Of a stretch of DNA of 64,000 nucleotides, positions 1 through 58,232 are shown piece by piece. The DNA lies in IMG/VR virus record IMGVR_UViG_3300046697_000072, one strand, 5' to 3'. The DNA is from a virus. The position numbers and the translations under genes were made by a program. The notes under the pieces are model-generated. The model searched no databases and had not been told where the DNA came from. It was given only the letters and a program-made list of their open reading frames with translations. The stretch's first letter is position 1. Every line of letters starts with the position of its first letter.

Positions 1-270
1 TACGGTGCGGACCTCTCCGGTGCGAACCTCTCCGGTGCGAACCTCTCCGGTGCGAACCTCTACAGTGCGAACCTCTCCGGTGCGAACCTCTACGGTGCGG
101 ACCTCTCCGGTGCGAACCTCTCCGGTGCGAACCTCTCCGGTGCGAACCTCTACCGTGCGAACCTCTCCGGTGCGAACCTCTACGGTGCGGACCTCTCCCG
201 TGCGAACCTCTCCGGTGCGAACCTCTACGGTGCGGACCTCTCCCGTGCGAACCTCTCCGGTGCGGAGGGT
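1..270 (+). repeat. Tandem 15-nt coding repeat with 90-nt and 45-nt higher-order units
   Basis: nt 1-90 and 91-180 differ at one base (tacagt vs taccgt). nt 181-225 and 226-270 are near-identical 45-nt units. The array runs off the window edge. Confidence 0.9.
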
Positions 271-4810: not shown

Positions 4811-6700
4811 GTGAACGAACAAACGACCGCGCTGGTCCCTCAACAGGACATGAGCGCATTCACGGAATATAACCGTGATCAAATCGAACTCGTCAAAGCC
4901 ACAGTTTGTCGTGGCGCAACCGACGATCAGTTGAAGCTGTTTCTAACGGTGTGCAAACGGACTCAGTTGGACCCGTTTGTGCATCAAATCTATGCCATCC
5001 AGCGAAAGAGCCGGGACGCATCCGGAAACTGGGTGCAGAATATGACAATCCAGACCGGCATCGACGGGCTTCGCCTAGTAGCCCAACGTTCCGGCGAGTA
5101 CCAAGGGCAGGAAGGCCCTTTCTGGTGCGGAGACGACGGCGTATGGAAGGATGTATGGCTATCTCCAGATCCTCCCGCTGCCGCAAAGGTGGCCGTCTAC
5201 CGCAAGGGATTCGTCAAACCAGTCTGGGGCGTGGCCCGATTCTGGGAATACGCTCAAACGACCTCCAAGGACGGTAAGAAGTTCCTGACCGGACTTTGGA
5301 AAACGATGTACAGCAACCAATTGGCCAAGTGCTCCGAGGCCCTAGCACTCCGCAAAGCATTCCCCAATGAAAGCTCTGGCCTCTATATCCGGGAAGAAAT
5401 GGATCAAGCTGGGCCTTCCACGATGGATGAACCTACCGCCGATGACCAGCGCCGGGTGGATAAGGTTGCCGACGATATGGGGGGCTACAAGGTCGGGCTG
5501 AAGGCCGTCCCGAAGACCGGACCGGCCCCGGAGCCGCAACCCGATCCGGTGAAGACGGTCGAGGTGAGGGCCGAAGCGCCAGATCCTGCCCCGGAGCCCG
5601 TCAAGGATGAACCGAAGCCCGATCCGGTGATCGAGTTCTGGGTGTGCTCTATCTCCAAGAAGTCCGGTAAAGACGTGCCTACGCCGGTTGAAGGGGAAGT
5701 ACCCCAGAATCGACAGGACACGGCCACACTACGCGCCCGGTCTTTGTGCAACGAGAAGGGCGTGACGTTCGTAGTAATCAAAACCCAGGACGGGAAGTTC
5801 GTCGATACGGTGTCGATCTGCAATCCCCTGTCTAAGCCCGCTCCGGCCCCTGCTGCTGCCCCGGCACCGGCTCCGGCCCCAACACCCAAGCCGGTGGCTA
5901 CCGGCGATCCCAAGGCCGCTGCGGAGACGATCAAGGCCCGGTTTAACGAGTTCGCGGCCCTGCTGGACCTGCCGGGTAAGACGGCCATTACGCGGTTCAA
6001 GGCGTTCGTGGCCGGTTACATGGGGATTAACCTGAAGGATCTCCCCAACAGCCCCCTGGAATGGCTGGAAGCTGTCGAGGAACTGGGGTATAGCCTGGGA
6101 TACGACCCGAACGAGTTCCGTTCCGGCCCGGAGTCTGCCGGCAAGCTGGCTCACCAGCGCCGGTTAGAGATTATGGGGTACATCCAGAAAGAATGGAAGG
6201 ACAGCCAGACTCAGACCTTGGCTCTGGAGGTGGCCCGTAAGTACGGATATAGGGTCAGTGACTTCCAGAAGTGGGCTGAGTTCATTGGGCTGGAGCCCAA
6301 ACTAGCAGAGGATGGTGCCTATCACTCTCTGTCTACCAAAGATGCCAACGCTTTCCTCCGGGCCTTCAAAGTCACCCGCGAGGCCGGTATCCTGCCAAAA
6401 CTGGCGAAGGATCACAACCTGGAGGTCTCCGCGATCATCGATCAGATCGAACAGCGCGGCCTGAAATGCAAGCTGGAGGAGTCCACGCCGGGCGACGTGG
6501 AGAACGCCATCAAGGGGTTCACGCTGGCCGTCAGGGAGGAAGCGAAAGCCGCCGCCGCCCCTACTCCGGTCTCGCCCTCAGCCCCAGTGAACGAGCCTTC
6601 TGGGACCGAGCCGCCAGCAGCCGAGGGTGGACCCGAAGCAGACGGATCTGGCGAGGAATCGGACGAAGGGCAAGATAACATCTTTGCGAGTCTGTTCTGA
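4811..6700 (+). CDS. recT: RecT/Bet-family single-strand annealing protein with a ~400-aa C-terminal extension
   Basis: N-terminal ~230 aa contain ...QLKLFLTVCKRTQLDPFVHQIYAIQRK...GIDGLRLVAQRSGEYQG.... GTG 4811 follows the SD (the track starts at TTG 4790). P/A-rich linkers are followed by extra domains and an acidic/hydrophobic tip, DEGQDNIFASLF. Confidence 0.8.
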   Translation: MNEQTTALVPQQDMSAFTEYNRDQIELVKATVCRGATDDQLKLFLTVCKRTQLDPFVHQIYAIQRKSRDASGNWVQNMTIQTGIDGLRLVAQRSGEYQGQEGPFWCGDDGVWKDVWLSPDPPAAAKVAVYRKGFVKPVWGVARFWEYAQTTSKDGKKFLTGLWKTMYSNQLAKCSEALALRKAFPNESSGLYIREEMDQAGPSTMDEPTADDQRRVDKVADDMGGYKVGLKAVPKTGPAPEPQPDPVKTVEVRAEAPDPAPEPVKDEPKPDPVIEFWVCSISKKSGKDVPTPVEGEVPQNRQDTATLRARSLCNEKGVTFVVIKTQDGKFVDTVSICNPLSKPAPAPAAAPAPAPAPTPKPVATGDPKAAAETIKARFNEFAALLDLPGKTAITRFKAFVAGYMGINLKDLPNSPLEWLEAVEELGYSLGYDPNEFRSGPESAGKLAHQRRLEIMGYIQKEWKDSQTQTLALEVARKYGYRVSDFQKWAEFIGLEPKLAEDGAYHSLSTKDANAFLRAFKVTREAGILPKLAKDHNLEVSAIIDQIEQRGLKCKLEESTPGDVENAIKGFTLAVREEAKAAAAPTPVSPSAPVNEPSGTEPPAAEGGPEADGSGEESDEGQDNIFASLF

Positions 6701-6711
6701 GGAGATACATC

Positions 6712-7044
6712 ATGGGAAACAACGCAGCGTTTACAAGTTTTGAAGCGTCGGTAATCGCCGTCTACAACAGGGGCGTTCTCGACAAGGAACTGCTCGATGC
6801 TCTGGCCGCTCCCTACGAGGGCATGGACATCGACCGGGGCGGCATGGAAGGCACGCTTACCAAGGACGGCCTGGACATCGACGGGGTGATCTGCAAGGTG
6901 TACGGCATCGTGCTGGCACCGTATCCTGACATCCCGAAGGACTGGCGCGAACAGACACCCGAGCAGCAGGACCTCAACGATGAATGGGTGGAAGCCAAGT
7001 ACGAGGCCATCCACAAGATCCAAGAGAAGTGGGGCTGGGGGTAG
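6712..7044 (+). CDS. Hypothetical protein (110 aa)
   Basis: Track ORF with GAGGAG SD. Confidence 0.6.
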   Translation: MGNNAAFTSFEASVIAVYNRGVLDKELLDALAAPYEGMDIDRGGMEGTLTKDGLDIDGVICKVYGIVLAPYPDIPKDWREQTPEQQDLNDEWVEAKYEAIHKIQEKWGWG

Positions 7045-7047
7045 GCC

Positions 7048-7722
7048 GTGTCCAACGTTGAACTAACGTACAACGCCGAGAAGCACGAATACCGAATCGG
7101 GGGCCGAAAGGCCCCCGGCATAACGACCGTGCTTTCGGCCATGTCGTACTATCCCTCTCAGGGGCACTACACGGATGAGAGCCGCAGGCGTGGAACGGCA
7201 GTACACCACGCCTGCTACCTCCTGGACGAGCACTGCCCCCAGGCAACCACGGTCGATGAGGCCCTGGAAGTCCTGGACCTGGACGACCGCCTGATCCCCT
7301 ACATGCAGGGGTACTTGGCTTGGAAACGGGAGAGCGGGTTCATCCCTCAGAGGCATGAGTTTCAGGTTTGCTCTGCCAAGCTGAACATCGCGGCCACACC
7401 GGACCTGTACGGGATATTCCCCGGACCATGCGGAGGTGTGGTTGAACTGAAGACTTGGAAAGCCGCCCCGCCGAAGTGCCAGCGATCCGCTGAACTCCAG
7501 ACCGCCGCGCAAGCCTTGATGATCGAAGAATACCTGGGGCTCCCGGTCGAGCGCCGGGTGGTGGTGGCGTTGACCGGGAACCCGGATCACCCACACCGGG
7601 CTTACGTCTGTGACCGGCCCGGAGACAAGAACATCGTAGCGTTCCTGGCACACGTGTTCTGGGACCGCGTTAACTCCCGGTTGCTGGAATGGACCGGGGA
7701 GGAAGAGGAGGATGAAGAATGA
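7048..7722 (+). CDS. PD-(D/E)XK (RecB/Cas4/YqaJ-like) exonuclease, partner of the annealase
   Basis: N-terminal ...EKHEYRIGGRKAPGITTVL.... D...ELK core (ATPDLYG...GGVVELKTWK). Acidic tail EEEEDEE. Confidence 0.7.
   Translation: MSNVELTYNAEKHEYRIGGRKAPGITTVLSAMSYYPSQGHYTDESRRRGTAVHHACYLLDEHCPQATTVDEALEVLDLDDRLIPYMQGYLAWKRESGFIPQRHEFQVCSAKLNIAATPDLYGIFPGPCGGVVELKTWKAAPPKCQRSAELQTAAQALMIEEYLGLPVERRVVVALTGNPDHPHRAYVCDRPGDKNIVAFLAHVFWDRVNSRLLEWTGEEEEDEE
7050..7063. repeat. GTSCAACGTTGSAC dyad motif copy
   Basis: GTCCAACGTTGAAC overlaps the GTG start codon (7048), giving the N-terminus (M)SNVEL. Confidence 0.85.
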
Positions 7723-8039
7723 TATCTGATAGAAGAAACTTAAATGTCGTTCCATCAGAGTTGCCCTGCGGGGCGCACCTACTGGCCGTGGCCTACGGGA
7801 CAGGTAAGGACGACTACCTAGCGGTAGTTCTTGGGTTCATCCCCGCCGAAGAAGGGATGCGGGAGAAGTGGGTGACCTGGATTTGGAACTCCGACCCCGG
7901 TTGTTTCGGGTTTGGGGATGGCCACTATATGAACCTGGGAGAAACTGGCTGGGCAAACTTTTGCGAGCGATCCAAGGAGTTCGTGCTGAAGGCAATTCTC
8001 TGGGACGAAGTTGGGCTGTTAAGGGGGACGGGTGTATGA
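7719..8039 (+). CDS. Hypothetical protein (106 aa)
   Basis: Track ORF with ATGA overlap. Confidence 0.6.
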   Translation: MISDRRNLNVVPSELPCGAHLLAVAYGTGKDDYLAVVLGFIPAEEGMREKWVTWIWNSDPGCFGFGDGHYMNLGETGWANFCERSKEFVLKAILWDEVGLLRGTGV

Positions 8040-12892: not shown

Positions 12893-15800
12893 TTACCGTG
12901 TTACCGTGCCGCTCCCGAACACGGGCCGGTAGGTCACGACGCCAGAGACCCCCATCAGGATCGCGGCCTCTCCTGCCCGGAGCGAGACGCTCGTCACCGG
13001 AGCGCCCAGAGTTCCGTCCGCGCTCAGAAGCTGGTACGTGCCCCCCAAGGCGATGGCCTGCGATGGCGTATCCAGTTCGGCCTCCAGGTGCAGGCTGCCC
13101 CGAAACGGCCTCATTAACACGATGCCATTCGTGAAATCCCGCCGCCATACGTTCGGGCATCCGCCGGTTGAGCAATCTCCAAGAGGAGAGTGCCCAGAGA
13201 TCGCGCTGCCGTACAACCAGGGCGTCCCCCCGGTTTCATCAGCCGCACGAACGCCGGCCCTGTACCCTGCAGTGTTTGGAACACCCAGATCCACGCCCAT
13301 AGCTGGAAACCAGGTGGTCCAACCCCATACGTTCGCCACGGACGGACTTGTAATGGCAGCCAAGTGCTGAGACTGAATGCAGCTTGCCGCCGCGCCAGCG
13401 AGGTACGAATTGTAGATCGGGCTTGTGGTGCTGAAAATCTTCCAGTCAGAACTGCGGATCGTGCTCACTGTTGGCTGATGTCCCGTCGTGTCCAGGGTGC
13501 CCGTGATCCAATACGCGGTCACTCCCCCTATCGAGGTAGTGGCCCAGTCGCCGGGTGGGGTGAATGTGATTGTCCCCGAGTTGTGGAGGACGTTCGTGCC
13601 GTCTGCCACTGTCAGTGCCACCTGAGCCGAACCATTCCAATAAGTCCAAGTGAGATACGCGCCACCTGACGGATCAACCACGCCGAAAGACAGGTGGCTG
13701 AACGGTGTAGAATACCCGGCCTGAATCGTGGCAGTCGGGTACGAACCCAAGAGCATGGTGGGTGATCCACCCCACGCCTGCAAAGAAACATCCCCTCCGA
13801 GGACCCGAACATAGCCAGGAGCCGATGCTTTTACCACATCCCCCGACGGTCCCAACTGCATCACTATCCCATTTGCCTCAAACACGCTCCCCACACAAGT
13901 ATCGACACTCATCAAGCTGATCGCCTTGGCGCCGGATGACGTATCTGCTGGAATAGGGGACGCCAAAGTGGTAGGCGTGTCGTATGTGTCCACTTGATCC
14001 GTGACTAAATAGTACCCGACAATCTCTTGCCCACCGTGATACATGTACCCCGTGTTGCTGTTGGTCCCCATATAGTGCATGGCCAGGGTGAGCATAGGTG
14101 TGCGGTTCGCTCGGTCCACAAAATGCCAAGTCGCCATCGAACCATTTCCCGGACTCCAACTTGATGCCGCGTTGAGGGAACTGGTGTCATAGAATGCCGT
14201 GTATACCTTGACGTTGTTCGGGTTGTTCGCCGTCAAAAAGTCGTCGTAGTTAACACAGCAGGCCCCCCCAAACGTGTAATCCGGGAAAGGATTCCGGGTG
14301 GCTGCCGCCGAGTAATAGTTGCCCGGCATGATCGCGGTTTCGAGCAGGTTCGCATCTCCGATCGGGTAGCCTCCCAAGAGCAAGGTCTGTCCATTGTTCG
14401 TGACCCAGAAGTTAGAGCCATGCTCAGACTTGAGGCGGGCAATCAATTCGGTGTGGAGCGCCCCCCACGCAGGCAACCAACCCTCGGTGTGATTGTAGTC
14501 CAGCGAGGCATCGGCATTCGAGGGCAGATTCGTCGCATCGTCATAAAACACGGCGTCGTAATTGTCGGTTGGGTTGAGGGCTGAATCTACTATGTCTGCA
14601 AGCGCCCGTCCCCAAGTCCGAATGCCGCTTTGAACATCGGACGGATTGCCGTACATGTTATTGCCGCCAGCTGTGGCGCGAGCCTGATATTGGAACTTGG
14701 CGGAAGCGGTTCCCGGTGGCGTCGGGTTGTACTCTAGGCGCGTTCCCACGTTAATCCGATTCGCGTCTGTTGCGTTCCATCCCCTGAAGGTATTGCCTGC
14801 CGACGAGACTGCCCAATCGTCACCCTTCACGGTGGAGTATATCGGAGAAACCGATGCACCGCTCACTACGATCTGCACCCAGTATTTCAGGTGAGTGGTC
14901 GTAATTGGGAATGGAGTCGTCACGTTCACCGTGAGAGTTTTCTGCGCCCAGTCCGACGGCGGATACCAGTATACCTTGCCAGAGGTCGTCAACCCCGAAG
15001 TTCCATCCGAGAGGTGACTCGATAGCGCGGTCCATGCTGAACCGTTCCAGTAATTGTAGGCCACCGTCCCACCCGTCCGGGCGGTTGTAATGGCAAAGTT
15101 CATCTGGTCGAACGGCTCCTGATAGCCAACGTATAAGGTGCTGGCTACGGTCGTGGTCGGAGAACCGAACCAGCTTCCATTCGTCACGTCGGCGTAAGCG
15201 CCGCTCGAATACGTGAACACGCCGCCGTCGTAATTTCCCCCACCCAGGTAGGGCTCGAAAGCGTCGAACCGAGTCATGTCTGATGTATACGCGGTAAGGG
15301 CTGAATCCACGTTGGCGTGGAGGTACATGTTCTCCAGTACGAATCCGTTAGTTATCGCTGTGTCTTGCGCCAAGTATCCAACCTCGGCGGTGAAGTCTGG
15401 CATGTCCTTATAAGTCGAGTAGTACGTCTTCGTGAGATTCCCGCCATGCGCATCTCCAGTACCGCCGCCACCGAGAACCCAGTCGAAACGGCTGCCCAAC
15501 CAGGTGTTGATTGTGCTCCAGAGCCCTGGCGGAGTGGTGTACTGGCCGTAGTCTACTATGGCCGTTGAGAGGTGTGGGAAATGGGGCGTGTGGGCTGCCA
15601 CCGTCATCGGCGCAACCGTGAAAGGAGACGAGTAGCCGGAAGTCCCTCCGGCGGCGGTAACGTCCATCTTCCACGATCCAGCCGTAAGGGATTGACTGTT
15701 GACGGTCAAGAGCGTCGAACTGTTGACGGTCACGCTGGAAGCTGCCGTGCAAGCTCCGCCTCCAGTCGGACAAAAGTTGACGCCCACGGGGGCAATAAAG

Positions 15801-16576
15801 GTGGTCCCTATGATGGAAGCGTTGAACGGAACCGACGGCCATGGAGATCCAGCCGATAGCGTATAGCCGCTCAGTGTAGGCGCGGCCGGCGCGACGTAGG
15901 GCTTGAACGCCGCGATCAAAGCTGCCGATGCGTTCGTGGTCGGAGAGAGCGCCCACGTCGGATTGCGTGCGGTGGCCGTCGCTTGGATCTCATAAGCGAG
16001 ACCCACTGAGTTGTTCGTGCCATTCGAGGAGGCCACATGCTGCGCGTAGTTGGAACTGAAAGGAGAATCTACACCGCTGATGTCGATGCTCTGGTACGTG
16101 CCTCCTACCGTTATCAGCAGTTCCCCGTTTCCGGCTGGCGTGAGCGTTCCAGGCTGGAGTGTTGCTCCTGTATCCTGGCCGCCGCCCGTAATCGCGTCCA
16201 ACACCAGACTTGATGCCGTACCCGAAAATGCGGTCACAGCAAAACTCATGTAGGCACCATAGGTTGTGAACGTGTGGCCCGTTCCCACGCTCGTCGGAAT
16301 GCTGTACCAGAGCGTCGCGTTCGCTGCCATCCCTGGTGCATGATAAGTTCCCGCGCAGGTCCATCCGTTACTCTTCGAATCGGCTACACCGTAGCTGCAA
16401 TTTCCACCCGTGGTGTAGTTGGATAGACCAATGACCAGCAGGGTGGCTCCAGTGGTGTCAATTGCAGACGTGGTAGTCGTCGCAAGGTTGCTCGGGTTCG
16501 CCACACTCGTGCTGGCCACGGGAGCGATCTGCCCCCACGCCGGAGCGCAGAGCAAGAGGATGAGCAGGGGCCTCAT
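12893..16576 (-). CDS. Giant fibre/depolymerase-like protein with N-terminal signal peptide (1227 aa)
   Basis: Track ORF 12893..16606. ATG 16576 forms an ATGA overlap with the upstream gene. N-terminus MRPLLILLLCAPAWGQ-IAPV. T/S/G-rich, beta-rich composition. Confidence 0.75.
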   Translation of the reverse strand: MRPLLILLLCAPAWGQIAPVASTSVANPSNLATTTTSAIDTTGATLLVIGLSNYTTGGNCSYGVADSKSNGWTCAGTYHAPGMAANATLWYSIPTSVGTGHTFTTYGAYMSFAVTAFSGTASSLVLDAITGGGQDTGATLQPGTLTPAGNGELLITVGGTYQSIDISGVDSPFSSNYAQHVASSNGTNNSVGLAYEIQATATARNPTWALSPTTNASAALIAAFKPYVAPAAPTLSGYTLSAGSPWPSVPFNASIIGTTFIAPVGVNFCPTGGGACTAASSVTVNSSTLLTVNSQSLTAGSWKMDVTAAGGTSGYSSPFTVAPMTVAAHTPHFPHLSTAIVDYGQYTTPPGLWSTINTWLGSRFDWVLGGGGTGDAHGGNLTKTYYSTYKDMPDFTAEVGYLAQDTAITNGFVLENMYLHANVDSALTAYTSDMTRFDAFEPYLGGGNYDGGVFTYSSGAYADVTNGSWFGSPTTTVASTLYVGYQEPFDQMNFAITTARTGGTVAYNYWNGSAWTALSSHLSDGTSGLTTSGKVYWYPPSDWAQKTLTVNVTTPFPITTTHLKYWVQIVVSGASVSPIYSTVKGDDWAVSSAGNTFRGWNATDANRINVGTRLEYNPTPPGTASAKFQYQARATAGGNNMYGNPSDVQSGIRTWGRALADIVDSALNPTDNYDAVFYDDATNLPSNADASLDYNHTEGWLPAWGALHTELIARLKSEHGSNFWVTNNGQTLLLGGYPIGDANLLETAIMPGNYYSAAATRNPFPDYTFGGACCVNYDDFLTANNPNNVKVYTAFYDTSSLNAASSWSPGNGSMATWHFVDRANRTPMLTLAMHYMGTNSNTGYMYHGGQEIVGYYLVTDQVDTYDTPTTLASPIPADTSSGAKAISLMSVDTCVGSVFEANGIVMQLGPSGDVVKASAPGYVRVLGGDVSLQAWGGSPTMLLGSYPTATIQAGYSTPFSHLSFGVVDPSGGAYLTWTYWNGSAQVALTVADGTNVLHNSGTITFTPPGDWATTSIGGVTAYWITGTLDTTGHQPTVSTIRSSDWKIFSTTSPIYNSYLAGAAASCIQSQHLAAITSPSVANVWGWTTWFPAMGVDLGVPNTAGYRAGVRAADETGGTPWLYGSAISGHSPLGDCSTGGCPNVWRRDFTNGIVLMRPFRGSLHLEAELDTPSQAIALGGTYQLLSADGTLGAPVTSVSLRAGEAAILMGVSGVVTYRPVFGSGTVTR

Positions 16577-19128
16577 TGCACCTTCACTCCCTTGCAGAGG
16601 ATGCACTGCTTTATAGGCGACGCGCCGGCCCCTTCCGTGATCTGGTAGACGTGCGCTCCGTATGCGCCGAATGAATCCGTGAACGTGGAACCACTTGGCG
16701 TGATCGTGCGGCTCTCGTTGTAGACTGTCACGGTCGAAATCGGAGCGTGCCAGGTGAATGTCGGGGCCACTGTCCCGCTGGTGGTGTTGCTGGCGATCAA
16801 GGTCGGAGTCGCCCCGGACTTTACGCGCGTGTGGACGGTGGCCGTATCGTTGCTAGTCAGTTTGGTATTGTCATCCAACGCGGCGAGAGGAGTGGCTAAA
16901 CCATCGATCTCTCCTATGACGTTCTTCAAATTGGTCCAGTTTGCAATCCATGTTGCATTTTGTAGACTTCGAACGGTTCCATCGAACGATCCAGAGAAGG
17001 CCGATGAGTTCACGGGTATAGTGAATGTATTGGCATCTATGACCGTAGGCCGGTAGCTCTGATCGTTCATGGCAGACCAGCTACCAGTCGCGCCGTAAGT
17101 ATAGACGTAGCTAAAATCAGCAGTCAATCCGTGCCCAGGGATAGTAAACGTCGTTACCGCTCCCTTGGTCACAGTGTCTAGTGCTGCATTCGTATCATCG
17201 ACAGGCGTCCCCGTCCCAAACACTAAGTGCCCGTTGAATGTACCAGCGAAACCGGTAGAGTTTACTGGAACGGTGATATTGGATGAACTAGACGTAGCGG
17301 TAATCGTCTGCGCTCCATTCAGCGCAGTCCAATCTCCCGTAGCCCCGGTGATTGTGGCGCTGCACGTCCCCCCGCACTGCGGATGCCAAGGCGAAATAAT
17401 AGTCGTTGGAGACCCAGGAGTCACAGACGTAATACCGCCTAGTTCCGTAAAGATAGAACTCAACTGCCCCGCAGACCAGTACATCAATCCATTGGCTCCG
17501 TCTGCTACTGCCATGTAGCTCATATCTCGCAGTTCGGCCTGTGTGGGCCATCTAATAGTTCCAGTAAACTGGAAGTACTGAATAACAGTCATTACTGGGC
17601 GTGATGATTGAACCGCTGACATTGCAGCAGTTGTCCATGTGCTCACTTCGTTGAGTGGGTAGCCAGATCCTTCGGCTCCAAACAGGGGGTACGGATCGGT
17701 AGCCAAAATATCCACGGTATCTCTCCACAGGGGTAGAGAGGAGTCCCCCAACTGAGCTCCGAGTATGGCCGCTCCTGGTGCCAACCTATCAGTGCGGGCC
17801 TTCGTCGCAAACGTGGTGGCTGCCACCGATGCGGCGCATTCGTCTGTACGATAGATTCCCCAAAACCCAGGCATTGCCGCCCGCGCTTCTATCTCCGCGT
17901 CTGACCCGATGTACCAAAAAAAGCTCGAACCTGGGATGCTGGTGGTTACGCAGTTATCTGTTTCTATCCACCCCACACCACTACCGTAAGTCTGGAGAGC
18001 TGCAATGAATGGGGAGGCTGCCAAGTTTGCCAAGTCTCCCATCCAGTAATTCAAATAGAGATTCACTCCCGTGAGCCCAGACAACTCTATCGTGCTATTC
18101 AATTGGTTCAGGAAAAAGGATTCTGAGGTGCTGTACCCGCCCCCTGAGTCATACAACCCCAACATGAACGTCGGCACACCGTTTTTCAAAATTCTCTGAT
18201 TCTGGTCTGCGCTTGTCTGGAATCCGGTGCGCGTGCTCCCTGGGTATTTGTAGATCGAGTAGTATGGATACTGATTGTTGGAACTTGCGTTTCCTCCACT
18301 GGAAGTCTGAGTCAACTGAAACGACACACGGTACTCAGTGGACTCCGAGAGTGCGGCCATGTCAAAGGTTGCCGTGGTGCTGGCTAACGCGGGCCACGAT
18401 CCCGCCAGAACTGTGGTTCCATCCGCTGTCTTGATTGTGCCATCAACCGTGTAGTCAGAAAGCGTCAAGTCTGTTGGATACATCCCCTGTGATGGATTTG
18501 GGACCACACTGAAAGTTGTGATCTGTGATTGATCGTCAAACAGCATCCCCTTCCAATTCGGGTACTGCATGAAGACAGAGATCGGCCTCTGCTCTTGGGT
18601 AAGTACTACATCATCGAACCAAGCCGTTCCGCTGGTGCCATTGTAGGCTGCCTCAAGACTCACTTGGATCTGAGCCGCGCTGCCCAAGGATAACCCCGGA
18701 AGAAGTATCTCGGTCCAATCATTTGTCCCCGTTAACGCTGGCGAGGAAGTCCAGATCAATGCGTAAGGAAATGACGGAGGAGCAAATACGCTCACTCGCA
18801 CTCCATTTCCCGTTATTGAGCTAGTCTTTACCCACACGCTCAAGTCATACACTCCTGCTGGCTGTGTGGAGATAGTCTGCTGAAGATTCACAACAGACCC
18901 GGAGAGGACCATCTTGGCGCTGTATGTACCAGTGTGTGCGTAATCACTAGCCACAGTAATGGCCCCCCCTCCGCCAGTCCAACCCGTGAAGTCCCCAGAC
19001 TCTAATCCAGGATTGGATAGAAGGTTGGAGCTAGGAACTGCTGCGGGATAGGAAGACAGTCCGCCGGGAGTCTGTGCCAAAGCAGTGCTAGCAAGCGCCA
19101 GAAAACACAGTAATTGTTTCATAGTCAT
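16573..19128 (-). CDS. Secreted-type CBM (CBM4/9-like) plus glycoside-hydrolase-like depolymerase/fibre (851 aa)
   Basis: N-terminus MTMKQLLCFLALASTALAQ-TPGG. Then NPGLESGDFTGWTGGG...HTGTYSAKM...WFDDVVL, the typical CBM4_9 pattern. Confidence 0.7.
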   Translation of the reverse strand: MTMKQLLCFLALASTALAQTPGGLSSYPAAVPSSNLLSNPGLESGDFTGWTGGGGAITVASDYAHTGTYSAKMVLSGSVVNLQQTISTQPAGVYDLSVWVKTSSITGNGVRVSVFAPPSFPYALIWTSSPALTGTNDWTEILLPGLSLGSAAQIQVSLEAAYNGTSGTAWFDDVVLTQEQRPISVFMQYPNWKGMLFDDQSQITTFSVVPNPSQGMYPTDLTLSDYTVDGTIKTADGTTVLAGSWPALASTTATFDMAALSESTEYRVSFQLTQTSSGGNASSNNQYPYYSIYKYPGSTRTGFQTSADQNQRILKNGVPTFMLGLYDSGGGYSTSESFFLNQLNSTIELSGLTGVNLYLNYWMGDLANLAASPFIAALQTYGSGVGWIETDNCVTTSIPGSSFFWYIGSDAEIEARAAMPGFWGIYRTDECAASVAATTFATKARTDRLAPGAAILGAQLGDSSLPLWRDTVDILATDPYPLFGAEGSGYPLNEVSTWTTAAMSAVQSSRPVMTVIQYFQFTGTIRWPTQAELRDMSYMAVADGANGLMYWSAGQLSSIFTELGGITSVTPGSPTTIISPWHPQCGGTCSATITGATGDWTALNGAQTITATSSSSNITVPVNSTGFAGTFNGHLVFGTGTPVDDTNAALDTVTKGAVTTFTIPGHGLTADFSYVYTYGATGSWSAMNDQSYRPTVIDANTFTIPVNSSAFSGSFDGTVRSLQNATWIANWTNLKNVIGEIDGLATPLAALDDNTKLTSNDTATVHTRVKSGATPTLIASNTTSGTVAPTFTWHAPISTVTVYNESRTITPSGSTFTDSFGAYGAHVYQITEGAGASPIKQCILCKGVKVQ

Positions 19129-19138
19129 TGTCTCATGG

Positions 19139-19885
19139 TCAGGGGTGTATGGTTATGATAATCCCGCCACCAGTTACACTGCGATCTCCGGTCGCCGTTG
19201 CGGTATAAGCTGCCTTAGCTGATACCGCTGCGGTCTCCAACAGCACGTTTCCGGGATTAGTGGGGCTCCGTTGCTGAAAACTAATGGGCGAAGATTCTGG
19301 AGTAAAGTTTATGCACCACGGGTAATCTGGCTGGACCGCAGACAAAACCGCCACTAATGCTTCATTTGTGTAGCTGGTGGTTGCTGTGGTTCCAGTCGTG
19401 TACGTGGAAGTTGCCACAAAGGTGCTGGTGGCATACAAATCAACCGGCGATGCGGACGCCCCGCTATACTCTATGACGTTTGTTATGTAGTTTGAGTTTG
19501 TGCCGCTACAGAAAATAGACACCGTAGTAGCCCCAGTAGTTGCTACGCTTGCCCACCACGCGGCGGTCTCAGTGACGCCGGAAGTGTCCAGGTAGTCAAC
19601 AATCAAATGCCAAGTCACAGCATTCGGCGTATTTGAAACCGTAAAACTAGAGCAGGTCGAGCTTGTGACGGCTCCGAAGACAAATAGTTTATAGCCGGCA
19701 GTGGGCGAGTAGCTAACGCTATCGCTGTAAGCCGACACGGAATGTGATGCGCTTCCCACGTAGGCTGGAGCTGCTGAATCGGCCGCCGTCTGATACATCC
19801 CCGGCCCCGGAAACGGGAACATCTGAAACATCGGCCCCAGGAGGGCGCGAAGCATTAGAGTTGCGATTGCGATTGTGCTGGTCAT
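19139..19885 (-). CDS. Fibre-associated protein (248 aa) with hydrophobic N-terminus
   Basis: Track ORF 19139..19984. ATG 19885 forms an ATGA overlap with the upstream stop. N-terminus MTSTIAIATLMLRALLG.... Confidence 0.6.
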   Translation of the reverse strand: MTSTIAIATLMLRALLGPMFQMFPFPGPGMYQTAADSAAPAYVGSASHSVSAYSDSVSYSPTAGYKLFVFGAVTSSTCSSFTVSNTPNAVTWHLIVDYLDTSGVTETAAWWASVATTGATTVSIFCSGTNSNYITNVIEYSGASASPVDLYATSTFVATSTYTTGTTATTSYTNEALVAVLSAVQPDYPWCINFTPESSPISFQQRSPTNPGNVLLETAAVSAKAAYTATATGDRSVTGGGIIITIHP

Positions 19886-21693
19886 CGGGTTACACTCCAA
19901 TTTAAGGTTACTGCTCCTGGAACGATGGCCGTTCCTGTTTTGTTTGCCAGGCGGAAATGCACGTAACCAGCGGTGGGCCACCAATACACAGCCAAGCCGT
20001 CTGTGGTCAGTGCTCCGTAGCCGGTGACCCCGCTAATGTCAGCATTTGGAGTGATGTAAATTGTGTCGGTTGAAACTACTCCGGTTGCAACCACATTCGT
20101 GGCCGTGTCTTGTGCGTTCAGCGCAATTGAGGTTGTGCGAAGCGCCTGCGCTCCAGCAGCGATCCTGATAGGGCTGTTCGGCATGATCCAATCTGTTCCG
20201 TTGTAGTAGAGCAGCACGGGCACGCTAGTTTGAAGTTCGCTTCCCAACAGAGCCGCTCCGTTGTGAAAGATCGGAACCGCGCCCCCTGAGTTGATCGCCA
20301 GCGTCATGGTTGAGGCGTTCACCGCGCCAGGAACGAACCAGATAAAATCCCCGGTGGCGAGCGTGAACGTGGGAGCTAGAGTACAGGTCTGGGCCGACGT
20401 GCTGGAAGACCCCGTGCAGGTCATCGGCACCGTGATGTTATGCGCTGTAGCTGCCACAGGAGCGCCATAGGCCCCAGTCCCAACAAGATTAGCCGAAGCG
20501 GGCACCGCAACCGCAGTAGGGGCAGCCGCGCCGCTGGTGTTGTTCAGCAGTTCGGTGGCGCTGGCCTGTGTTGCTAAATTCGTGAGCGGCACTGTCGGCG
20601 TGCAGGATGTACCGCTCGTGCAGGTTGTTCCGTAAACGCTCACGGTCGGATTCGACTTGTGAACCACGCCCGCGGGGGTGATGTAATCCACCCACTGGTT
20701 ACTCGTGGCACTGGATTCGGGTGCCACCATCGTGCCGGTTAGAACGCTTGAGGCATTTAGGTACTGCGGCATGTGGGCCGTTGAATCCAGATAGACTGTC
20801 GGAACCGTAACCGTAGGAGCGGCCTCTTCCAGTCCCTGCAATAGCAGAGCCGTGCTCGATCCAGTGCTGAACCCTCCATCGGCCTCAATGATTCCGCTGA
20901 CGTTGATGTTCCCTGTCTGCTGTGTGCCAGGAGCAGAGGATTGCAGGTTCACGCCAGCGACAGACCCTGTTGGCACTACGAACGCCGAACCGTTCCACGA
21001 ACACATGGAATAGGTGGGTATCGTGCCGCCACCCGTTGGAGGACATGCCCCGGCTACGGTGGCATCCGTAAACAACATCGTGTCACCGGCAGACGGAGAT
21101 CCGGGCTTGCTCCCGAAAACGCCACGATAAGTGAAGCCTGTGCCGTTCGTGCCCGCTGCACCGTTCGTTCCGTTCGTGCCATTGGTCCCGTTGCTGCCTG
21201 CCGCTCCAGTTGTGCCCATCGCGCCCGTCGTTCCGGTAGCGCCCTGTATGCCTTGGATTCCCTGAATACCTTGCGAACCTGTTGCGCCAGCCGCACCCTG
21301 TGGCCCAACCAACGACGTGCAGGTCCCTGGCCACGCCCCCGCCGCCTTGGGGCCGTACATGCAAGTGGTGTCGGTCTTCAGGTAGAAGTCCCCGTTGTTT
21401 CCCCCGGATGGCGCACCGGTCCCATTGAGGATCGAGTTTCCGTTGGTTCCGTTCGTTCCATTCCCGGCGATGACTTCCCAGGAATAACTTCCTGACCCAA
21501 CTTGGGAGCACCCGTAGAGGCTGGCATTCGCCGCTTGGGTGTTTTTCCGGTAGTAGACCTTCCCTACGTCACTGATGGTTCCACAGCCGCCCGATGGGGC
21601 CCCCGTGCCACTTGTGATCCTCTGTGCCGTCGAAGTGAACTGCGCCAACACCGGGGTGGACAGGAACAGGATTGTTGCCAGTAAGCGTTTCAT
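19882..21693 (-). CDS. Collagen-like-repeat fibre protein with signal peptide (603 aa)
   Basis: ATG 21693 follows GAGGTG. N-terminus MKRLLATILFLSTPVLAQ-FTST. A G-X-Y run, GPQGAAGATGSQGIQGIQGIQGATGTTGAMGTTGAAGSNGTNGTNGTNGAAGTNGTG, lies at about 21136-21306. Confidence 0.75.
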   Translation of the reverse strand: MKRLLATILFLSTPVLAQFTSTAQRITSGTGAPSGGCGTISDVGKVYYRKNTQAANASLYGCSQVGSGSYSWEVIAGNGTNGTNGNSILNGTGAPSGGNNGDFYLKTDTTCMYGPKAAGAWPGTCTSLVGPQGAAGATGSQGIQGIQGIQGATGTTGAMGTTGAAGSNGTNGTNGTNGAAGTNGTGFTYRGVFGSKPGSPSAGDTMLFTDATVAGACPPTGGGTIPTYSMCSWNGSAFVVPTGSVAGVNLQSSAPGTQQTGNINVSGIIEADGGFSTGSSTALLLQGLEEAAPTVTVPTVYLDSTAHMPQYLNASSVLTGTMVAPESSATSNQWVDYITPAGVVHKSNPTVSVYGTTCTSGTSCTPTVPLTNLATQASATELLNNTSGAAAPTAVAVPASANLVGTGAYGAPVAATAHNITVPMTCTGSSSTSAQTCTLAPTFTLATGDFIWFVPGAVNASTMTLAINSGGAVPIFHNGAALLGSELQTSVPVLLYYNGTDWIMPNSPIRIAAGAQALRTTSIALNAQDTATNVVATGVVSTDTIYITPNADISGVTGYGALTTDGLAVYWWPTAGYVHFRLANKTGTAIVPGAVTLNWSVTR

Positions 21694-21700
21694 GGTCACC

Positions 21701-22024
21701 TCACAGGAGCCCGTACAAGTACTGAACGCCGTCCCCGGAATTGTCCAAATCAACGTAGACGGTCCTCAGGTCGTAATCATGAACCGGCCATGCGACACTC
21801 GCATCTCCGGGGTGGATCGGGCATCCGGAGCCGGAAGGGATCGCCCCGGAATCAGCAGCATTGGGGACCCCGCCGATCCGGACTTCTCCGACGTTCGCTA
21901 CCCCGCCTACAACACGGGGAAAGAACGTGATCCATGTTGCCGGGACGGGATTCAGACCCGAGGCTAAAGGAACGGCGGTTCCAGGGGTGGTGGAAGTTTT
22001 GAAGCCGTGATACAGTGCGGCCAT
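21701..22024 (-). CDS. Hypothetical protein (107 aa)
   Basis: Track ORF. GGTGAGG SD before ATG 22024. Upstream member of the fibre operon. Confidence 0.6.
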   Translation of the reverse strand: MAALYHGFKTSTTPGTAVPLASGLNPVPATWITFFPRVVGGVANVGEVRIGGVPNAADSGAIPSGSGCPIHPGDASVAWPVHDYDLRTVYVDLDNSGDGVQYLYGLL

Positions 22025-22091: not shown

Positions 22092-22247
22092 TCAGGCTGC
22101 GGCTGCGGAGTCCAACGTTGCACAAGCCAACGCCGACTCGGTGTCTTCCCGCTTCTGCTCAGGATCGAACGGGACGGACAGGGCTTCGGCCAGGAGAGTG
22201 ATCTCGTCCTCGTCGTAGTCGAGTTTTCGTAGCCAGTGCCGATCCAT
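22092..22247 (-). CDS. Small acidic ORF (51 aa), absent from the ORF track
   Basis: Hand translation: MDRHWLRKLDYDEDEITLLAEALSVPFDPEQKREDTESALACATLDSAAAA*. First ORF downstream of the promoter at 22272-22299. Confidence 0.4.
   Translation of the reverse strand: MDRHWLRKLDYDEDEITLLAEALSVPFDPEQKREDTESALACATLDSAAAA
22110..22123. repeat. GTSCAACGTTGSAC dyad motif copy
   Basis: GTCCAACGTTGCAC in the last codons of the 51-aa ORF (read as ATLD), about 85 nt upstream of ATG 22024. Confidence 0.9.
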
Positions 22248-22271
22248 ACAAACTACCATCTTGACTACTAG

Positions 22272-22543: not shown

Positions 22544-22572
22544 ATTCTACGGCAACCCCGGTTTTATGTCAA
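22544..22572 (-). promoter_or_regulatory. Sigma-70-type leftward promoter (divergent pair)
   Basis: Minus strand: AAAAAACTC-TTGACA (22572-22567), 17-nt spacer, TAGAAT (22549-22544). Confidence 0.7.
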
Positions 22573-22584
22573 GAGTTTTTTCGC

Positions 22585-22614
22585 TTGACAGCGGAAACCG
22601 GGCGGGTGTAGTAT
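22585..22614 (+). promoter_or_regulatory. Sigma-70-type rightward promoter (divergent pair)
   Basis: TTGACA (22585-22590), 18-nt spacer, TAGTAT (22609-22614). Its -35 box is 12 nt from the leftward -35 box. Confidence 0.65.
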
Positions 22615-22739
22615 CGAAGTGTCTGCCGGTCGCGCAAACCGGCAGACACTCTGGGTCCGGGACGGGTCAAGAGTTTCAGTGGGTCCAGCGGGGCGGCTCC
22701 ATACGCCCCGCCCCCACAACCACATGGAGGTGGTTGACG

Positions 22740-23303
22740 ATGCATTCTGACGCTTTGAAATCCTTCAGGGTTGACCTTTCTGAAGATCGACTCGAATCCC
22801 TCTTTGAAGAATTTCTCGTAATGTTCCTGGGGGAATGTAACGAGGAGCCCTCCTTCATTCTGTTCACTGATAAACACCGGCAGAAACTGATCGATCTTGT
22901 TGGTGAGGCATACACGACTTCCCGGCACTACAACCAAATAGCGGAGTGGTCAATTGCTTGGGAAAACGGTAAGGCCGATGCCGACCAGATACTCTCTGTT
23001 TATGTTTTCGACCACTGTAGAACCCTTGAACAGGCAGAGGAACACCTTCGGGAAATGAAGTCTCTCCCGTATGTGGAATTCCTTAAGACGGATTACTGGT
23101 CAATCGTGCGGCGGGCCGTCATACGGATGCACAACGGGAAATGCGGGGTTTGTCTGTCTTCCGACCATCTCCACGTTCATCATAAATCCTACGATCACCA
23201 CGGGGAGGAGCATGAACATCTTGAGGATTTGATCCCATTATGCCGTTCGTGTCACGAAAAGTTTCACAATAAAGTCCCAACTCCCGGAGTATCTGCTCAA
23301 TGA
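22740..23303 (+). CDS. HNH-motif nuclease-like protein (187 aa)
   Basis: GAGGTGG SD before ATG 22740 (track ORF 22566..23303). C-terminal CGVC...HVHHKSY...LIPLCRSCHEKFH. Confidence 0.65.
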   Translation: MHSDALKSFRVDLSEDRLESLFEEFLVMFLGECNEEPSFILFTDKHRQKLIDLVGEAYTTSRHYNQIAEWSIAWENGKADADQILSVYVFDHCRTLEQAEEHLREMKSLPYVEFLKTDYWSIVRRAVIRMHNGKCGVCLSSDHLHVHHKSYDHHGEEHEHLEDLIPLCRSCHEKFHNKVPTPGVSAQ

Positions 23304-27142: not shown

Positions 27143-27904
27143 ATGCCGGAAGCAAACACCGCTTTAGAGTTAATCAAGAAGAAGCCGACTGAAAAAGAAA
27201 TGAAGTTCTTGGCCGAGACGGCCAAAGAAGGCGTTACCCTGGAGAAGTTGATCCCGGACGACATGGACCCCGGCGACTTGCTGGGCAACATGGACATCGT
27301 GTGCCGAGGGCTGGCGCGGGCCGACACGGTAACCAACGGGCTGATCCCGGTCCTGGGCCGGATGCTGGCCGTGGCGAAGTCGAACCCTGCCGTCATGGAG
27401 AAGGCCGGGGTGGATACCTGGGACAAGTTCCTGGAAGAGAAGGTCTATCCGTACTTCCAGCGGGGCCGGTCCACGGCGTTTTTCGCCCTGCGGTTGGCGA
27501 AGCGATGGCCGAGCCTGGACACCCAGACCTACACCGCCGTCTCCCGGCGCGGGTTCCAGATTCTCATGAAGGCCATCCCGGAGAAACAGACCACGGAGCC
27601 GTGGGCCAAGGCGCTGGTCAAGAAAGCCGCCAAGCTCAGCGTGGACGCGCTGGAGCAGCACTGCGAGGAGCAGGGCTACCTGACGCATGGGTCCGTTACG
27701 GGCGCGGTGATTAGGGTAGCCACGAACAAGGCCACGGCGCGGGCTTGGGAGAAGTTCTGCAAGAACAAGAAAATCCAGGCGTACTGCCAGTCCGACCAGC
27801 CGGACGTGATCCTCAACAAACTCATGGAAGAGTGCGAGATCGAGTGGATGTCGCGGGCCGAAGACGCCGCTGCCGCACCCGTTCAACCCGTGGAGGCCGC
27901 ATGA
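27143..27904 (+). CDS. Hypothetical protein (253 aa)
   Basis: Track ORF. First gene after the promoter. Antisense ORF 27170..27886 rejected. Confidence 0.65.
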   Translation: MPEANTALELIKKKPTEKEMKFLAETAKEGVTLEKLIPDDMDPGDLLGNMDIVCRGLARADTVTNGLIPVLGRMLAVAKSNPAVMEKAGVDTWDKFLEEKVYPYFQRGRSTAFFALRLAKRWPSLDTQTYTAVSRRGFQILMKAIPEKQTTEPWAKALVKKAAKLSVDALEQHCEEQGYLTHGSVTGAVIRVATNKATARAWEKFCKNKKIQAYCQSDQPDVILNKLMEECEIEWMSRAEDAAAAPVQPVEAA

Positions 27905-28287
27905 AACGATCCGCTTTTCTAGCCTCGTTACTAGGGGTGTTGGGGATCGGACAGGCGCAGCAGTGGAGAGAGGATGAACCGGAACGGAGGCTCGACCCCT
28001 TAAACTGCATGGGCTGGGACAAGGAAGGGAATATCACGCGAGTTGCCTGCGGACATTCTGGCAAGCACAAGCCGGCGCTCAACAACCAGTGCCCAGTGTG
28101 CGGCACAATGGCAAAGCCGTACAGCGGCAAGCGGGCGTATAGTGAACCGTGGTGCGAAGGCGGACCGCAGCAATTCCCGCCAACTAAGGAAATGTTGGCA
28201 CAGTGCGAAGACCTGCCGCGACAGAGGATCACTCGCTGCCTACGTTGCTCCGCAGCCTTTTGGCAAAATTCGGAGGATAAGAAATGA
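27901..28287 (+). CDS. Secreted Cys-rich protein (128 aa)
   Basis: ATGA overlap. N-terminus MKRSAFLASLLGVLGIGQAQ-QWRE is signal-peptide-like. Multiple CxxC. Confidence 0.55.
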   Translation: MKRSAFLASLLGVLGIGQAQQWREDEPERRLDPLNCMGWDKEGNITRVACGHSGKHKPALNNQCPVCGTMAKPYSGKRAYSEPWCEGGPQQFPPTKEMLAQCEDLPRQRITRCLRCSAAFWQNSEDKK

Positions 28288-28601
28288 CGACGCTAACGGA
28301 TTTCCAGACTCACTGCTCGAAGACGGGGACAGCCCCGGATTTCGATGGCTTGGCCGACATGTTCGGTGGGGCCGATAAGGTCTTCACGAGCTACCTCGAA
28401 GGCTCGATGGATCAGGATCTCAAGGACTGGGTGCTGATGCACGGCTCCCGCGCCCTGACCGCCTTCACCATGGCTCAACTGGCGCAGTTTGAGGCCAGTT
28501 CGTTCTTCTCGATCATGGGGATGCTCAACCAAATCAACTTGAACCTGAAGGAGATCAACGCCGGGATGAAGGCCATGATCCAGACACCCAAAGTGCAATG
28601 A
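28284..28601 (+). CDS. Hypothetical protein (105 aa)
   Basis: Track ORF with GGAGGA SD and ATGA overlap. Confidence 0.6.
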   Translation: MTTLTDFQTHCSKTGTAPDFDGLADMFGGADKVFTSYLEGSMDQDLKDWVLMHGSRALTAFTMAQLAQFEASSFFSIMGMLNQINLNLKEINAGMKAMIQTPKVQ

Positions 28602-29029
28602 CCCGTTCAAGAGCAGAACGCATCATCGGGTGTGAGGTCTTCCTCGTGGGGCCGAACGGACTTCACGGGCGCACGTGGCGGGCGATGGACGGTGAGACCG
28701 AGATCGCCCGCGTCACCGAGCCAGATGACGACCGGGCTTGGGATAAGCTGGTGCATGTTCTCTACCAGCGCCGGAGCCTTCAGGCGTTCGAGGAACAGGA
28801 CTGGCAGTGCCTCCAGTGCCAAAGTTACCAGCCACTGCAATCGCACCATCTGATTCCGAGGGCGAGGGGACGGTCGGATGTCAGGCCCAACTTGGCCGGT
28901 CTGTGCCCTGCGTGCCACGACAATATCACCCAGAACCGGGTGAAACTCACGCCCCATCCCCGCGTTCTGGAAGCGGTATTCCAGGCATCCGGCCTCCGGT
29001 GGAGCGATACTGGGTGGGTGAGGGAGTGA
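28598..29029 (+). CDS. HNH endonuclease
   Basis: CLQC...QSHHLIPRARGRSDVRPNLAGLCPACHDNI. Confidence 0.8.
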   Translation: MTRSRAERIIGCEVFLVGPNGLHGRTWRAMDGETEIARVTEPDDDRAWDKLVHVLYQRRSLQAFEEQDWQCLQCQSYQPLQSHHLIPRARGRSDVRPNLAGLCPACHDNITQNRVKLTPHPRVLEAVFQASGLRWSDTGWVRE

Positions 29030-58195: not shown

Positions 58196-58201
58196 ATTTC
58201 C

Positions 58202-58230
58202 ACTATACGCCTATGCGCTTACAGTGTCAA
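58202..58230 (-). promoter_or_regulatory. Sigma-70-type promoter giving a leaderless or near-leaderless mRNA
   Basis: Minus strand: TTGACA (58230-58225), 17-nt spacer, TATAGT (58207-58202). Only 6 nt separate it from ATG 58195. Confidence 0.65.
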
Positions 58231-58232
58231 GG

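Follow-up and report, generated by a model that had tools for sequence, protein, structure and literature searches.

The stretch of DNA considered here, IMG/VR virus record IMGVR_UViG_3300046697_000072, comprises 64,000 nucleotides (this whole stretch is called the window) and covers most of the genome of an uncultured short-tailed phage from soil or peat (runs SRR35911956, SRR35912369 and SRR35911959) with a guanine-plus-cytosine content of about 57%; a further 12 kb or so of the phage genome probably lie outside it. Within the window, a cassette of six minus-strand genes is located between two plus-strand blocks of replication genes, and four of the six encode the large proteins, termed A to D, with which this work is mainly concerned. 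Gene A (19882–21693; 603 amino acids, aa) encodes a predicted signal peptide, a Cys-containing N-module of the tail-fibre type, a collagen-like Gly-X-Y stretch and C-terminal modules. It is followed by gene B (19139–19885; 248 aa), the product of which has a hydrophobic N-terminus, by gene C (16573–19128; 851 aa, or 849 aa from the second ATG), with a predicted signal peptide, a carbohydrate-binding module of the CBM4_9 type and a predicted TIM barrel, and by gene D (12893–16576; 1227 aa), with a predicted signal peptide, an N-domain of about 210 aa, an Ig-like segment and a domain of about 900 aa.

A 107-aa gene (21701–22024) lies 7 nt upstream of A, and a 55-aa open reading frame (ORF; 22092–22259), which was called in three assemblies, is the probable first gene of the cassette; the operon probably includes both of them besides A to D. 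No family match was obtained for either product with PHROG or NCBIfam. On another contig, a gene of 107 aa likewise stands before the gene for an A-like protein, P0190. A sigma-70-like promoter candidate on the minus strand (22544–22572; TTGACA-17-TAGAAT, 11/12, a consensus match only) is found in the divergent intergenic region upstream of the cassette. The pairs A/B and C/D are joined by ATGA start/stop overlaps at 19882–19885 and 16573–16576, respectively, as was described in the first-pass annotation of this DNA, and B and C are separated by a gap of 10 nt. Shine-Dalgarno sites were recognized for A (GAGGTG) and for B and D (GGAG-type). Because of these sites and the ATGA coupling, the start positions can be regarded as fixed, and the gene calls of the cassette are identical in three independent assemblies of the same phage, made from three sequencing runs.

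The N-termini of the phage proteins were scanned with a set of home-made rules rather than with SignalP: a net positive charge ahead of the core, a hydrophobic 8-mer free of charged residues, small residues at both −3 and −1, and correct spacing. The scan flagged 6 of the 62 N-termini in the window and 3 of 12,783 internal pseudo-N-termini, which corresponds to an expectation of 0.015 and a P value of about 1e-14. The six comprise A (MKRLLATILFLSTPVLA↓QFTST, 21643–21693), C (MTMKQLLCFLALASTALA↓QTPGG, 19075–19128) and D (MRPLLILLLCAPAWG↓QIAPV, 16532–16576), all on the minus strand, together with three proteins encoded outside the cassette: a 1740-aa beta-helix-type protein (46220–51442, minus strand; MKKLLPFLFLLCNVGLS↓QTSQ), a 106-aa protein (45885–46205, minus strand; ...ILILAIALAGLA↓QQKP) and a 128-aa protein (27901–28287, plus strand; MKRSAFLASLLGVLGIGQA↓QQW). 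These are the proteins for which n-h-c signal sequences had been proposed at first pass, where signals on fibre-like phage proteins were called unexpected; they are indeed unusual. The hydrophobic N-terminus that had been noticed on B (MTSTIAIATLMLRALLGPMF) is present, but it has no basic n-region and is not called by the scan.

In all six flagged proteins, a small residue (A, G or S) followed by Gln stands at the probable cleavage point, although Gln makes up only 4% of the proteome. In the 106-aa protein, the scan scores ALA↓G highest; the alternative with Gln, GLA↓Q, lies three residues on. As all six signals end in a small residue and Gln, cleavage is likely to take place before the Gln (A/G/S↓Q, of the AXA↓Q type) and not after it, where the first-pass annotation had placed it. 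Neither a lipobox nor a twin-arginine motif was found in these N-termini, the n-regions of which are MK, MKR, MR or MKK and the +1 residue of which is Gln. C-terminal sorting domains of the type IX secretion system or of the PEP-CTERM kind gave no Pfam or NCBIfam match in A to D; the 1740-aa protein had no NCBIfam match and no Pfam match at E ≤ 0.001. Type IX cargo was considered as an identity for these proteins and was rejected for want of a C-terminal sorting domain.

A chance resemblance to signal peptides, or a wrongly called start codon, would explain the same N-termini and is favoured by the fact that the only predictor used was home-made. It is set against the P value of about 1e-14 relative to internal positions, the fixed starts, which are the same in three independent assemblies, and the conservation of the feature in homologues; hence, it is considered extremely unlikely. 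Based on the rule scan and the homologues, the N-termini are predicted to be genuine signal peptides for Sec and signal peptidase I, tuned to the host, and their action as true Sec-type signals is supported by all the in silico tests that were run.

Homologues of the 1740-aa protein bear on this. Across nine homologues of its N-terminus, the core sequence changes freely, position −1 admits only A, G, S or C, and every sequence has Gln at +1. This pattern, a free core with a fixed −1 and +1, is what would be expected from selection on a cleaved signal peptide and not on a structural helix. The signal is followed by a conserved domain of about 130 aa with two invariant Cys residues, then by a GGTG motif and a variable distal part. 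Fibre proteins of a second, distantly related group offer a comparison of another kind. The N-domains of P0112 and P0113 (from loci L100 and L098) combine a signal peptide with a Cys pair (GFCEQGG...PGC), whereas P0126 (from L099), which is 48–50% identical to them, begins exactly at the point at which those signals stop, and both of its Cys positions are occupied by Ala. The three sequences would seem to represent a clean natural switch between an exported and a cytoplasmic version of a fibre.

An uncleaved N-terminal helix for virion attachment had been offered as an explanation at first pass. In a wider form, the N-termini would be uncleaved helices which serve for membrane tethering or tail attachment, and the proteins would stay in the cytoplasm. 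In its favour, B has a bare hydrophobic stretch without an n-region, and large, fast-folding trimeric fibres are poor substrates for Sec. The nine homologues of the 1740-aa protein, with their free core and fixed residues around the cleavage point, speak against it, as do the co-variation of Cys pair and signal peptide in P0112 and P0113 versus P0126 and the plainly secreted cellular homologues of C described below. An uncleaved helix is therefore disfavoured and is rated very unlikely.

The number of Cys residues in the mature proteins is even in A (10), C (6), D (10), the 128-aa protein (8) and the 106-aa protein (2); the 1740-aa protein has 35 and the large ejection-like proteins of the phage have none. 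The even counts, together with the co-variation of Cys pair and signal, may be read as signs of extracytoplasmic folding. In homologues of D and A, the signal peptide remains constant while the domains behind it are shuffled.

Residues 34–141 of protein C match Pfam CBM_4_9 (PF02018) with 28.8 bits against a cut-off of 25.9, in agreement with the CBM4/9-like module that had been suspected in one member of the group, and the module also matches the CBM of PDB entry 2xom (E 3e-4). The order of elements is signal peptide, a conserved GGLxxYP motif, CBM4_9, an Ig-like sandwich, a TIM barrel, an insert of about 190 aa and a C-terminal sandwich; the insert is also present in the closest homologue, P0012, which lies on a contig with an exopolysaccharide (EPS) locus. 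An AlphaFold2 model built from the homologue alignment had a pLDDT of 73 and a pTM of 0.71. When it was compared with the PDB by Foldseek, the top 50 matches were enzymes of glycoside hydrolase family 2 (GH2) with E values of 1e-10 to 3e-13, with beta-glucuronidases and galactosidases at 1e-12 to 3e-13. The global TM-scores are only 0.2–0.3, which is this low because of domain orientation. The predicted (beta/alpha) barrel, recognized from the alignment, AlphaFold2 and Foldseek, spans about residues 310–555 (17464–18201, minus strand); D429, D478 and W551 are invariant in the family and E430 is nearly so. No Pfam or NCBIfam glycoside hydrolase model matched C. Taken together, C is predicted to be a CBM4_9-bearing, GH2-like TIM-barrel glycosidase, an enzyme-type multidomain protein rather than a fibre. 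The description of the group as giant fibre-like proteins thus holds for A, with its collagen repeat, and fails for C.

In nearly all 38 homologues of C, a signal peptide is found at the same place, directly before GGL(T/S)AYP. The genes for P0012 (49% identity) and P0014 (48%) adjoin genes for a Wzy polymerase, a Wzx-type flippase and several glycosyltransferases, and the gene for P0018 (42%) adjoins a flippase gene and GT2 genes. From these contexts, the family appears to consist of secreted GH2-like glycosidases of bacterial Wzx/Wzy exopolysaccharide loci.

Protein D is linked to polysaccharide by the gene contexts of its relatives. A homologue with 63% identity, P0001, keeps the signal (MRRPYLILALCATAWG↓Q), and two others, P0003 and P0004, lack the first 330 aa of D and have a signal peptide of their own directly before the common main domain. 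Phage-tail-like proteins that have no signal also contain the N-domain of about 210 aa. In a metagenome profile scan, the D-like domain was found behind a signal peptide in two cellular clusters containing GT2 genes (L104 and L105) and in a phage tail module (L108). Searches of D against the PDB, by sequence and by profile, gave nothing, and Pfam gave nothing meaningful on D and its relatives. Structure modelling, which had been recommended at first pass for finding catalytic domains, led to the GH2 matches in the case of C but failed for D, since the model of residues 331–1227, based on an alignment of five sequences, had a pLDDT of 30 and was unusable. Scans of IMG/VR for relatives of C and of D found none.

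Protein A matches Pfam Collagen with 33.3 bits against a cut-off of 27.2 over its Gly-X-Y repeat (residues 130–184), and its PHROG tail-fibre matches cover the Gly-rich part only. Its N-module is related to a GxGAPxxxxG...GDxY motif that is common in tail fibres without a signal. P0190, P0207, P0277 and P0282 are made of shuffled pieces of A, each behind a signal peptide and Gln of its own, and A would fit a collagen-like fibre built from shuffled modules. An A-like gene is located after the fibre gene in the tail module of L090, and A of the window lies among replication genes. B had no Pfam, PHROG or NCBIfam match and no similarity to the N-domain of D. In the cellular GT2 cluster L105, a gene at 5857–7944, beside the D-like gene, encodes a signal-bearing N-terminus of the form ...A↓QT(K/R)VDL(P/R)TQ..., which was also seen among the matches to A (P0188 and P0194). 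Exported fibre-like modules would thus seem to form a wider, shuffled pool on which both soil bacteria and their phages draw.

The host is probably a member of the Acidobacteriota of the Terriglobia type and an ordinary diderm. Among species-representative genomes, the nearest members of the C family were found in metagenome-assembled genomes (MAGs) of Bryobacteraceae and Solibacteraceae, both Acidobacteriota, followed by Rokubacteria and others; the unusual host cell plan that had been put forward at first pass is thus without support. Gln at +1 had first suggested a host among the Bacteroidota, which was rejected on Shine-Dalgarno use, promoter type and the taxonomy of the homologues: a Shine-Dalgarno site is present at 30 of 48 gene starts (62%) against a background of 12%, and the promoter-like sites of the phage are of the TTGACA/TAnAAT type.

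The frequency of a small residue followed by Gln was counted in signal-like N-termini of several taxa, independently of the predicted site and just after the hydrophobic core, which is a crude heuristic. The motif was present in 12 of 23 signal-like N-termini encoded on the first 250 kb (NC_015057, 1–250000) of a Granulicella tundricola megaplasmid, in 7 of 11 from the Bryobacteraceae and Solibacteraceae MAG loci, in 12 of 33 from Rokubacteria and in 7 of 51 (14%) from Binatia; interior windows, used as a control, gave about 12%. At the single best site, the Granulicella count was 3/23, as the scan prefers an earlier AXA site. By these counts, the signals of the phage match a secretome of the Terriglobia type. 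The Q-rule has been described as exclusive to Bacteroidetes, in work that did not analyse Acidobacteria (PMC5837995, PMC10653852), and a literature search for an acidobacterial Q-rule found none. The counts are a hint that the rule also operates in Terriglobia.

The explanation that we prefer, to which about an even chance is assigned, is that the cassette encodes exported phage proteins which target glycans, do their work in the periplasm and are set free by lysis. The operon would be an accessory cassette of the phage, expressed from its own sigma-70-like promoter; it is encoded on the other strand from the replication genes on either side of it and lies apart from the virion module. The infected cell would export the cassette proteins to the periplasm, where, after probable removal of the signal peptides, they would fold oxidatively and cut or bind the nascent exopolysaccharide or capsule of the host, a role also supposed for the EPS-locus homologues (as for WceF, below), so that the dying cell might be stripped of its matrix or receptor before lysis. 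Lysis would then free the proteins as soluble depolymerases, which could clear a path for the progeny without being part of the particle. C, together with its signal peptide, would have been acquired from the secreted enzymes of EPS loci, and the main domain of D would lead the same double life, in cellular polysaccharide clusters and in phages. The reading of A to D as free enzymes is favoured by the promoter of their own, the place outside the virion block, the lack of a constant anchor domain, and the cellular ancestry of C and D. Among the four explanations offered at first pass, soluble secreted depolymerases are the best supported, and it is C, with its CBM4_9, GH2-like fold and secreted EPS-locus family, that supports them.

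A to D could instead be proteins of a conversion or exclusion type, made from a resident or pseudolysogenic phage genome or early in infection, that are exported and remodel the surface polysaccharide of the host and bring about superinfection exclusion or a benefit to the host, in the manner of lambda Lom and Bor, T5 Llp and O-antigen-converting enzymes. Besides the promoter, which is separate from the late genes, this possibility is favoured by the Q-rule secreted proteins carried by prophages of Porphyromonas gingivalis (PMC10367356) and by the use of such enzymes for chain-length control in bacterial EPS loci, as in the case of WceF. Against it, no integrase, repressor or excisionase was found within the 64 kb, with about 12 kb probably lying beyond the window, and no prophage copy was found among the 74 loci of a genome scan with the C profile. 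The replication set, too, looks lytic in kind: it includes a DEAD-type helicase, DnaB and RecT (by Pfam) and a sliding clamp, the last read from sequence only. HNH nucleases are encoded among the replication genes as well. Lysogenic conversion, which had been listed at first pass, is therefore not favoured, and the whole explanation is judged unlikely.

A more serious alternative arises from the tail genes, which are found in a minus-strand structural block at about 30.7–64 kb. Two SU10-type adaptor genes (51439–52170 and 52170–52829, minus strand; Pfam SU10_adaptor, E 1e-10 and 4e-7) are located there, and the gene for the 1740-aa protein follows them directly. The same arrangement, with a homologue of the 1740-aa protein encoded directly after SU10-type adaptor genes, was found in L084 (76 kb), in L085/L086 (one contig, 75.5 kb) and in L090. 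In L088, a single adaptor-like gene precedes the homologue, and in L087 (78 kb), a 646-aa signal-bearing gene stands between the adaptor gene and the homologue. All the homologues in L084, L085/L086, L087, L088 and L090 have a signal peptide and Gln. In SU10, this adaptor-adjacent slot is occupied by the long tail fibre, the N-terminus of which is docked on the adaptor. Over its distal 1000 aa, the 1740-aa protein shares 62% identity with P0112, which has a different N-domain and belongs to a different, distantly related type of tail module (L098, L099 and L100). As related distal parts are combined with different N-domains in the two types of tail module, the type of N-domain follows the type of tail, as an anchor domain would.

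Other signal-bearing proteins are encoded in the same regions. In L087 and in L108, the tail module contains a run of three signal-bearing genes, and a coiled-coil protein of 101–106 aa with a signal peptide is encoded after the fibre gene in both types of phage. In the window, this is the 106-aa protein (signal or anchor plus coiled coil), the gene for which lies directly downstream of the 1740-aa gene; the homologue in L098 (12962–13267) is 43% identical (E 2e-14). Proteins of this kind, about 100 aa long, have a Pro/Lys-rich linker, a coiled coil and two C-terminal Cys residues, and the 106-aa protein could be a periplasmic factor for fibre assembly or an i-spanin-like protein. Its gene is overlapped at the 3' end by 52 nt by the ORF at 45385–45936; no PHROG or NCBIfam match was found for the 106-aa protein or for a 183-aa protein. 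From the comparison of these contigs, the signal-bearing trait appears to be lineage-wide and to reach into the tail module.

Accordingly, the exported proteins may be the receptor-binding fibres or tailspikes of the virion itself, folded in the periplasm with disulfides and possibly pyroglutamate, and docked onto finished but still fibreless particles at the holin-mediated collapse of the inner membrane or at lysis. The last assembly step would then be extracytoplasmic, in a whole group of soil podophages that probably infect Acidobacteriota. The adaptor-adjacent position of the 1740-aa gene, its conserved N-domain and variable distal part, and the co-variation of N-domain type and tail type argue for this in the case of the 1740-aa protein, together with the three phages in which homologous tail modules have an N-domain with signal and Cys pair (L098, L100) or with neither (L099). 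The small coiled-coil protein behind the fibre gene in two phage types resembles a dedicated assembly factor, and A-like and D-like proteins are encoded in the tail modules of L090 and L108. In addition, P22 tailspikes and T4 fibres can join particles in vitro. On the other side, a literature search gave no precedent for fibres of tailed phages delivered by Sec, the A to D families have no constant N-terminal anchor domain, and A to D of the window lie outside the structural module. Gene position alone is no proof of membership in the virion. Virion fibres are regarded as a possible explanation, less likely than the preferred one but the strongest of its rivals, both for the proteins of the window and for the wider group of podophages.

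Several points weigh against the preferred explanation, that of exported glycan-targeting proteins freed at lysis. Signal-bearing A-like and D-like genes form part of tail modules in L090 and L108, and a signal-bearing protein occupies the long-tail-fibre slot in the window, with an N-domain type that co-varies with the type of tail. No other obvious receptor-binding protein was seen in the structural block of the window, so that, if all these proteins were free enzymes, the particle would be left without fibres. In a diderm, a Sec signal reaches the periplasm only, and no route across the outer membrane was identified. The signal calls come from a rule-based scan and not from a trained predictor. 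Finally, the global TM-scores of the C model are low and its conserved acidic residues could not be placed in catalytic roles, and D has no fold match and B no family match.

Further features of the window were recorded. A megablast search with the cassette against cultured phages gave no match at the DNA level, a tblastn search with the capsid-like protein against cultured phages gave no match, and DnaB was at most 31% identical to its counterparts in cultured phages. No tRNA genes were found in the 64 kb. The 128-aa protein (27901–28287, plus strand) is encoded inside the replication block, by a gene translationally coupled to its neighbours; its mature part has 8 Cys residues with CxxC pairs, and no PHROG or NCBIfam family match was obtained. 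Immediately upstream of the capsid-like gene, the structural module contains a group of sugar-handling genes (54332–60473, minus strand): three GT2-type glycosyltransferases, a sugar-nucleotidyl transferase and a 746-aa fusion of GT4, methyltransferase and GT7C. They might serve the glycosylation of virion proteins, the modification of the host polysaccharide or DNA modification. Three homing-type nuclease genes, two HNH and one LAGLIDADG-like, were located at 22566–23303, 28598–29029 and 57087–57956, and one of them breaks up the structural and glycosyltransferase block. A 928-aa protein without Cys (30721–33507, minus strand), encoded among giants that resemble ejection proteins, has a weak Pfam match to Sigma70_r2 at residues 792–840 (E 5.5e-5, just under the cut-off) and might be a transcription factor delivered by the virion. 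At the very start of the window (3–264), 17.5 tandem copies of the 15-bp unit CGGTGCGAACCTCTC were found with 89% matches and are read through as an ORF with RTSPV repeats; this array might mark the end of the genome or serve as an origin or iteron-like element.

Among known systems, close parallels are found in bacteria. PslG, AlgL and BcsZ are periplasmic or secreted glycan hydrolases of bacterial exopolysaccharide loci. The resemblance lies in C, which is 40–49% identical to signal-bearing proteins encoded beside Wzx and glycosyltransferase genes, in some cases also beside Wzy, and in the main domain of D, which occurs in GT2 clusters; the difference is that here the gene belongs to a phage and to a coupled operon with fibre-like proteins, and that the C family has no Pfam model of a catalytic domain. 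WceF of Pantoea stewartii is an exported EPS-locus enzyme that shares ancestry with phage tailspikes and controls chain length (PMC7949094). It has a signal for twin-arginine translocation and a beta-helix, in contrast to the Sec-type signal and the GH2-like TIM-barrel architecture of C.

With tailspikes and fibres such as P22 gp9, the K1F endosialidase and SU10 gp12, the phage proteins share collagen-like or beta-helix-type modules and the shuffling of domains, and the 1740-aa protein additionally shares with fibres of the SU10 gp12 type a conserved N-domain, a variable distal part and the position next to the adaptor. However, the depolymerases, tailspikes and fibres known from virions lack signal peptides, and their assembly takes place in the cytoplasm, unlike A, C, D and the 1740-aa protein with their Sec-type signals; B has none. 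Lambda Lom, T5 Llp and Cor, which are encoded among tail genes, are small receptor-blocking proteins of the outer-membrane or lipoprotein kind. This likeness, an exported protein among tail genes, may apply to the 106-aa protein, but those proteins are small when compared with the fibres of 600–1700 aa found here.

Phages are also known to make use of the host Sec pathway. The endolysins Lys44 of fOg44 and Lyz of P1 are exported by Sec or have signal-arrest-release (SAR) sequences (PMC6116005); they, too, are late-function proteins held outside the cytoplasm until lysis, but they are peptidoglycan hydrolases of lysis cassettes and not glycan-targeting fibres or depolymerases. In a survey of 64,678 carbohydrate-active enzymes (CAZymes) of prophages, 5% had signal peptides (PMC13507307). 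C is likewise a phage-borne enzyme of this kind with a signal peptide; those of the survey were treated as metabolic auxiliaries of lysogens, whereas here a whole coupled set is concerned and the trait extends to the tail module. The Q-rule proteins of the P. gingivalis prophages share with the present case type I signals, cleavage that would expose Gln and a likeness to the secretome of the host. They are small proteins with no assigned function and belong to prophages of Bacteroidota; here, the proteins are giant fibres or enzymes and the host is unlikely to be a member of that phylum. Since phage proteins that use Sec, prophage CAZymes with signals and tailspike-like enzymes of EPS loci are all known, C alone would be of a known kind. 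What is new is so in degree: a coupled set of giant signal-bearing proteins that probably target glycans, the extension of the trait to an adaptor-adjacent fibre gene across several related phages, and a host-matched Gln motif outside the Bacteroidota.

If the proteins are exported enzymes, the phage would attack the exopolysaccharide of its host from inside before lysis, with enzymes copied from EPS loci of the host. This would be a strategy of destroying receptor and matrix that is relevant to soil biofilms and carbon turnover, and the C and D families, which have no curated model of a catalytic domain, would be a new source of glycanases. If, on the other hand, they are fibres of the virion, they would be an exception to the textbook rule that particles of tailed phages are completed in the cytoplasm and would be of interest for the question of how phage proteins come by their disulfides and their stability in acidic soils. 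Under both readings, a cleavage motif matched to that of the host, a small residue and then Gln, may be usable for predicting the hosts of uncultured phages.

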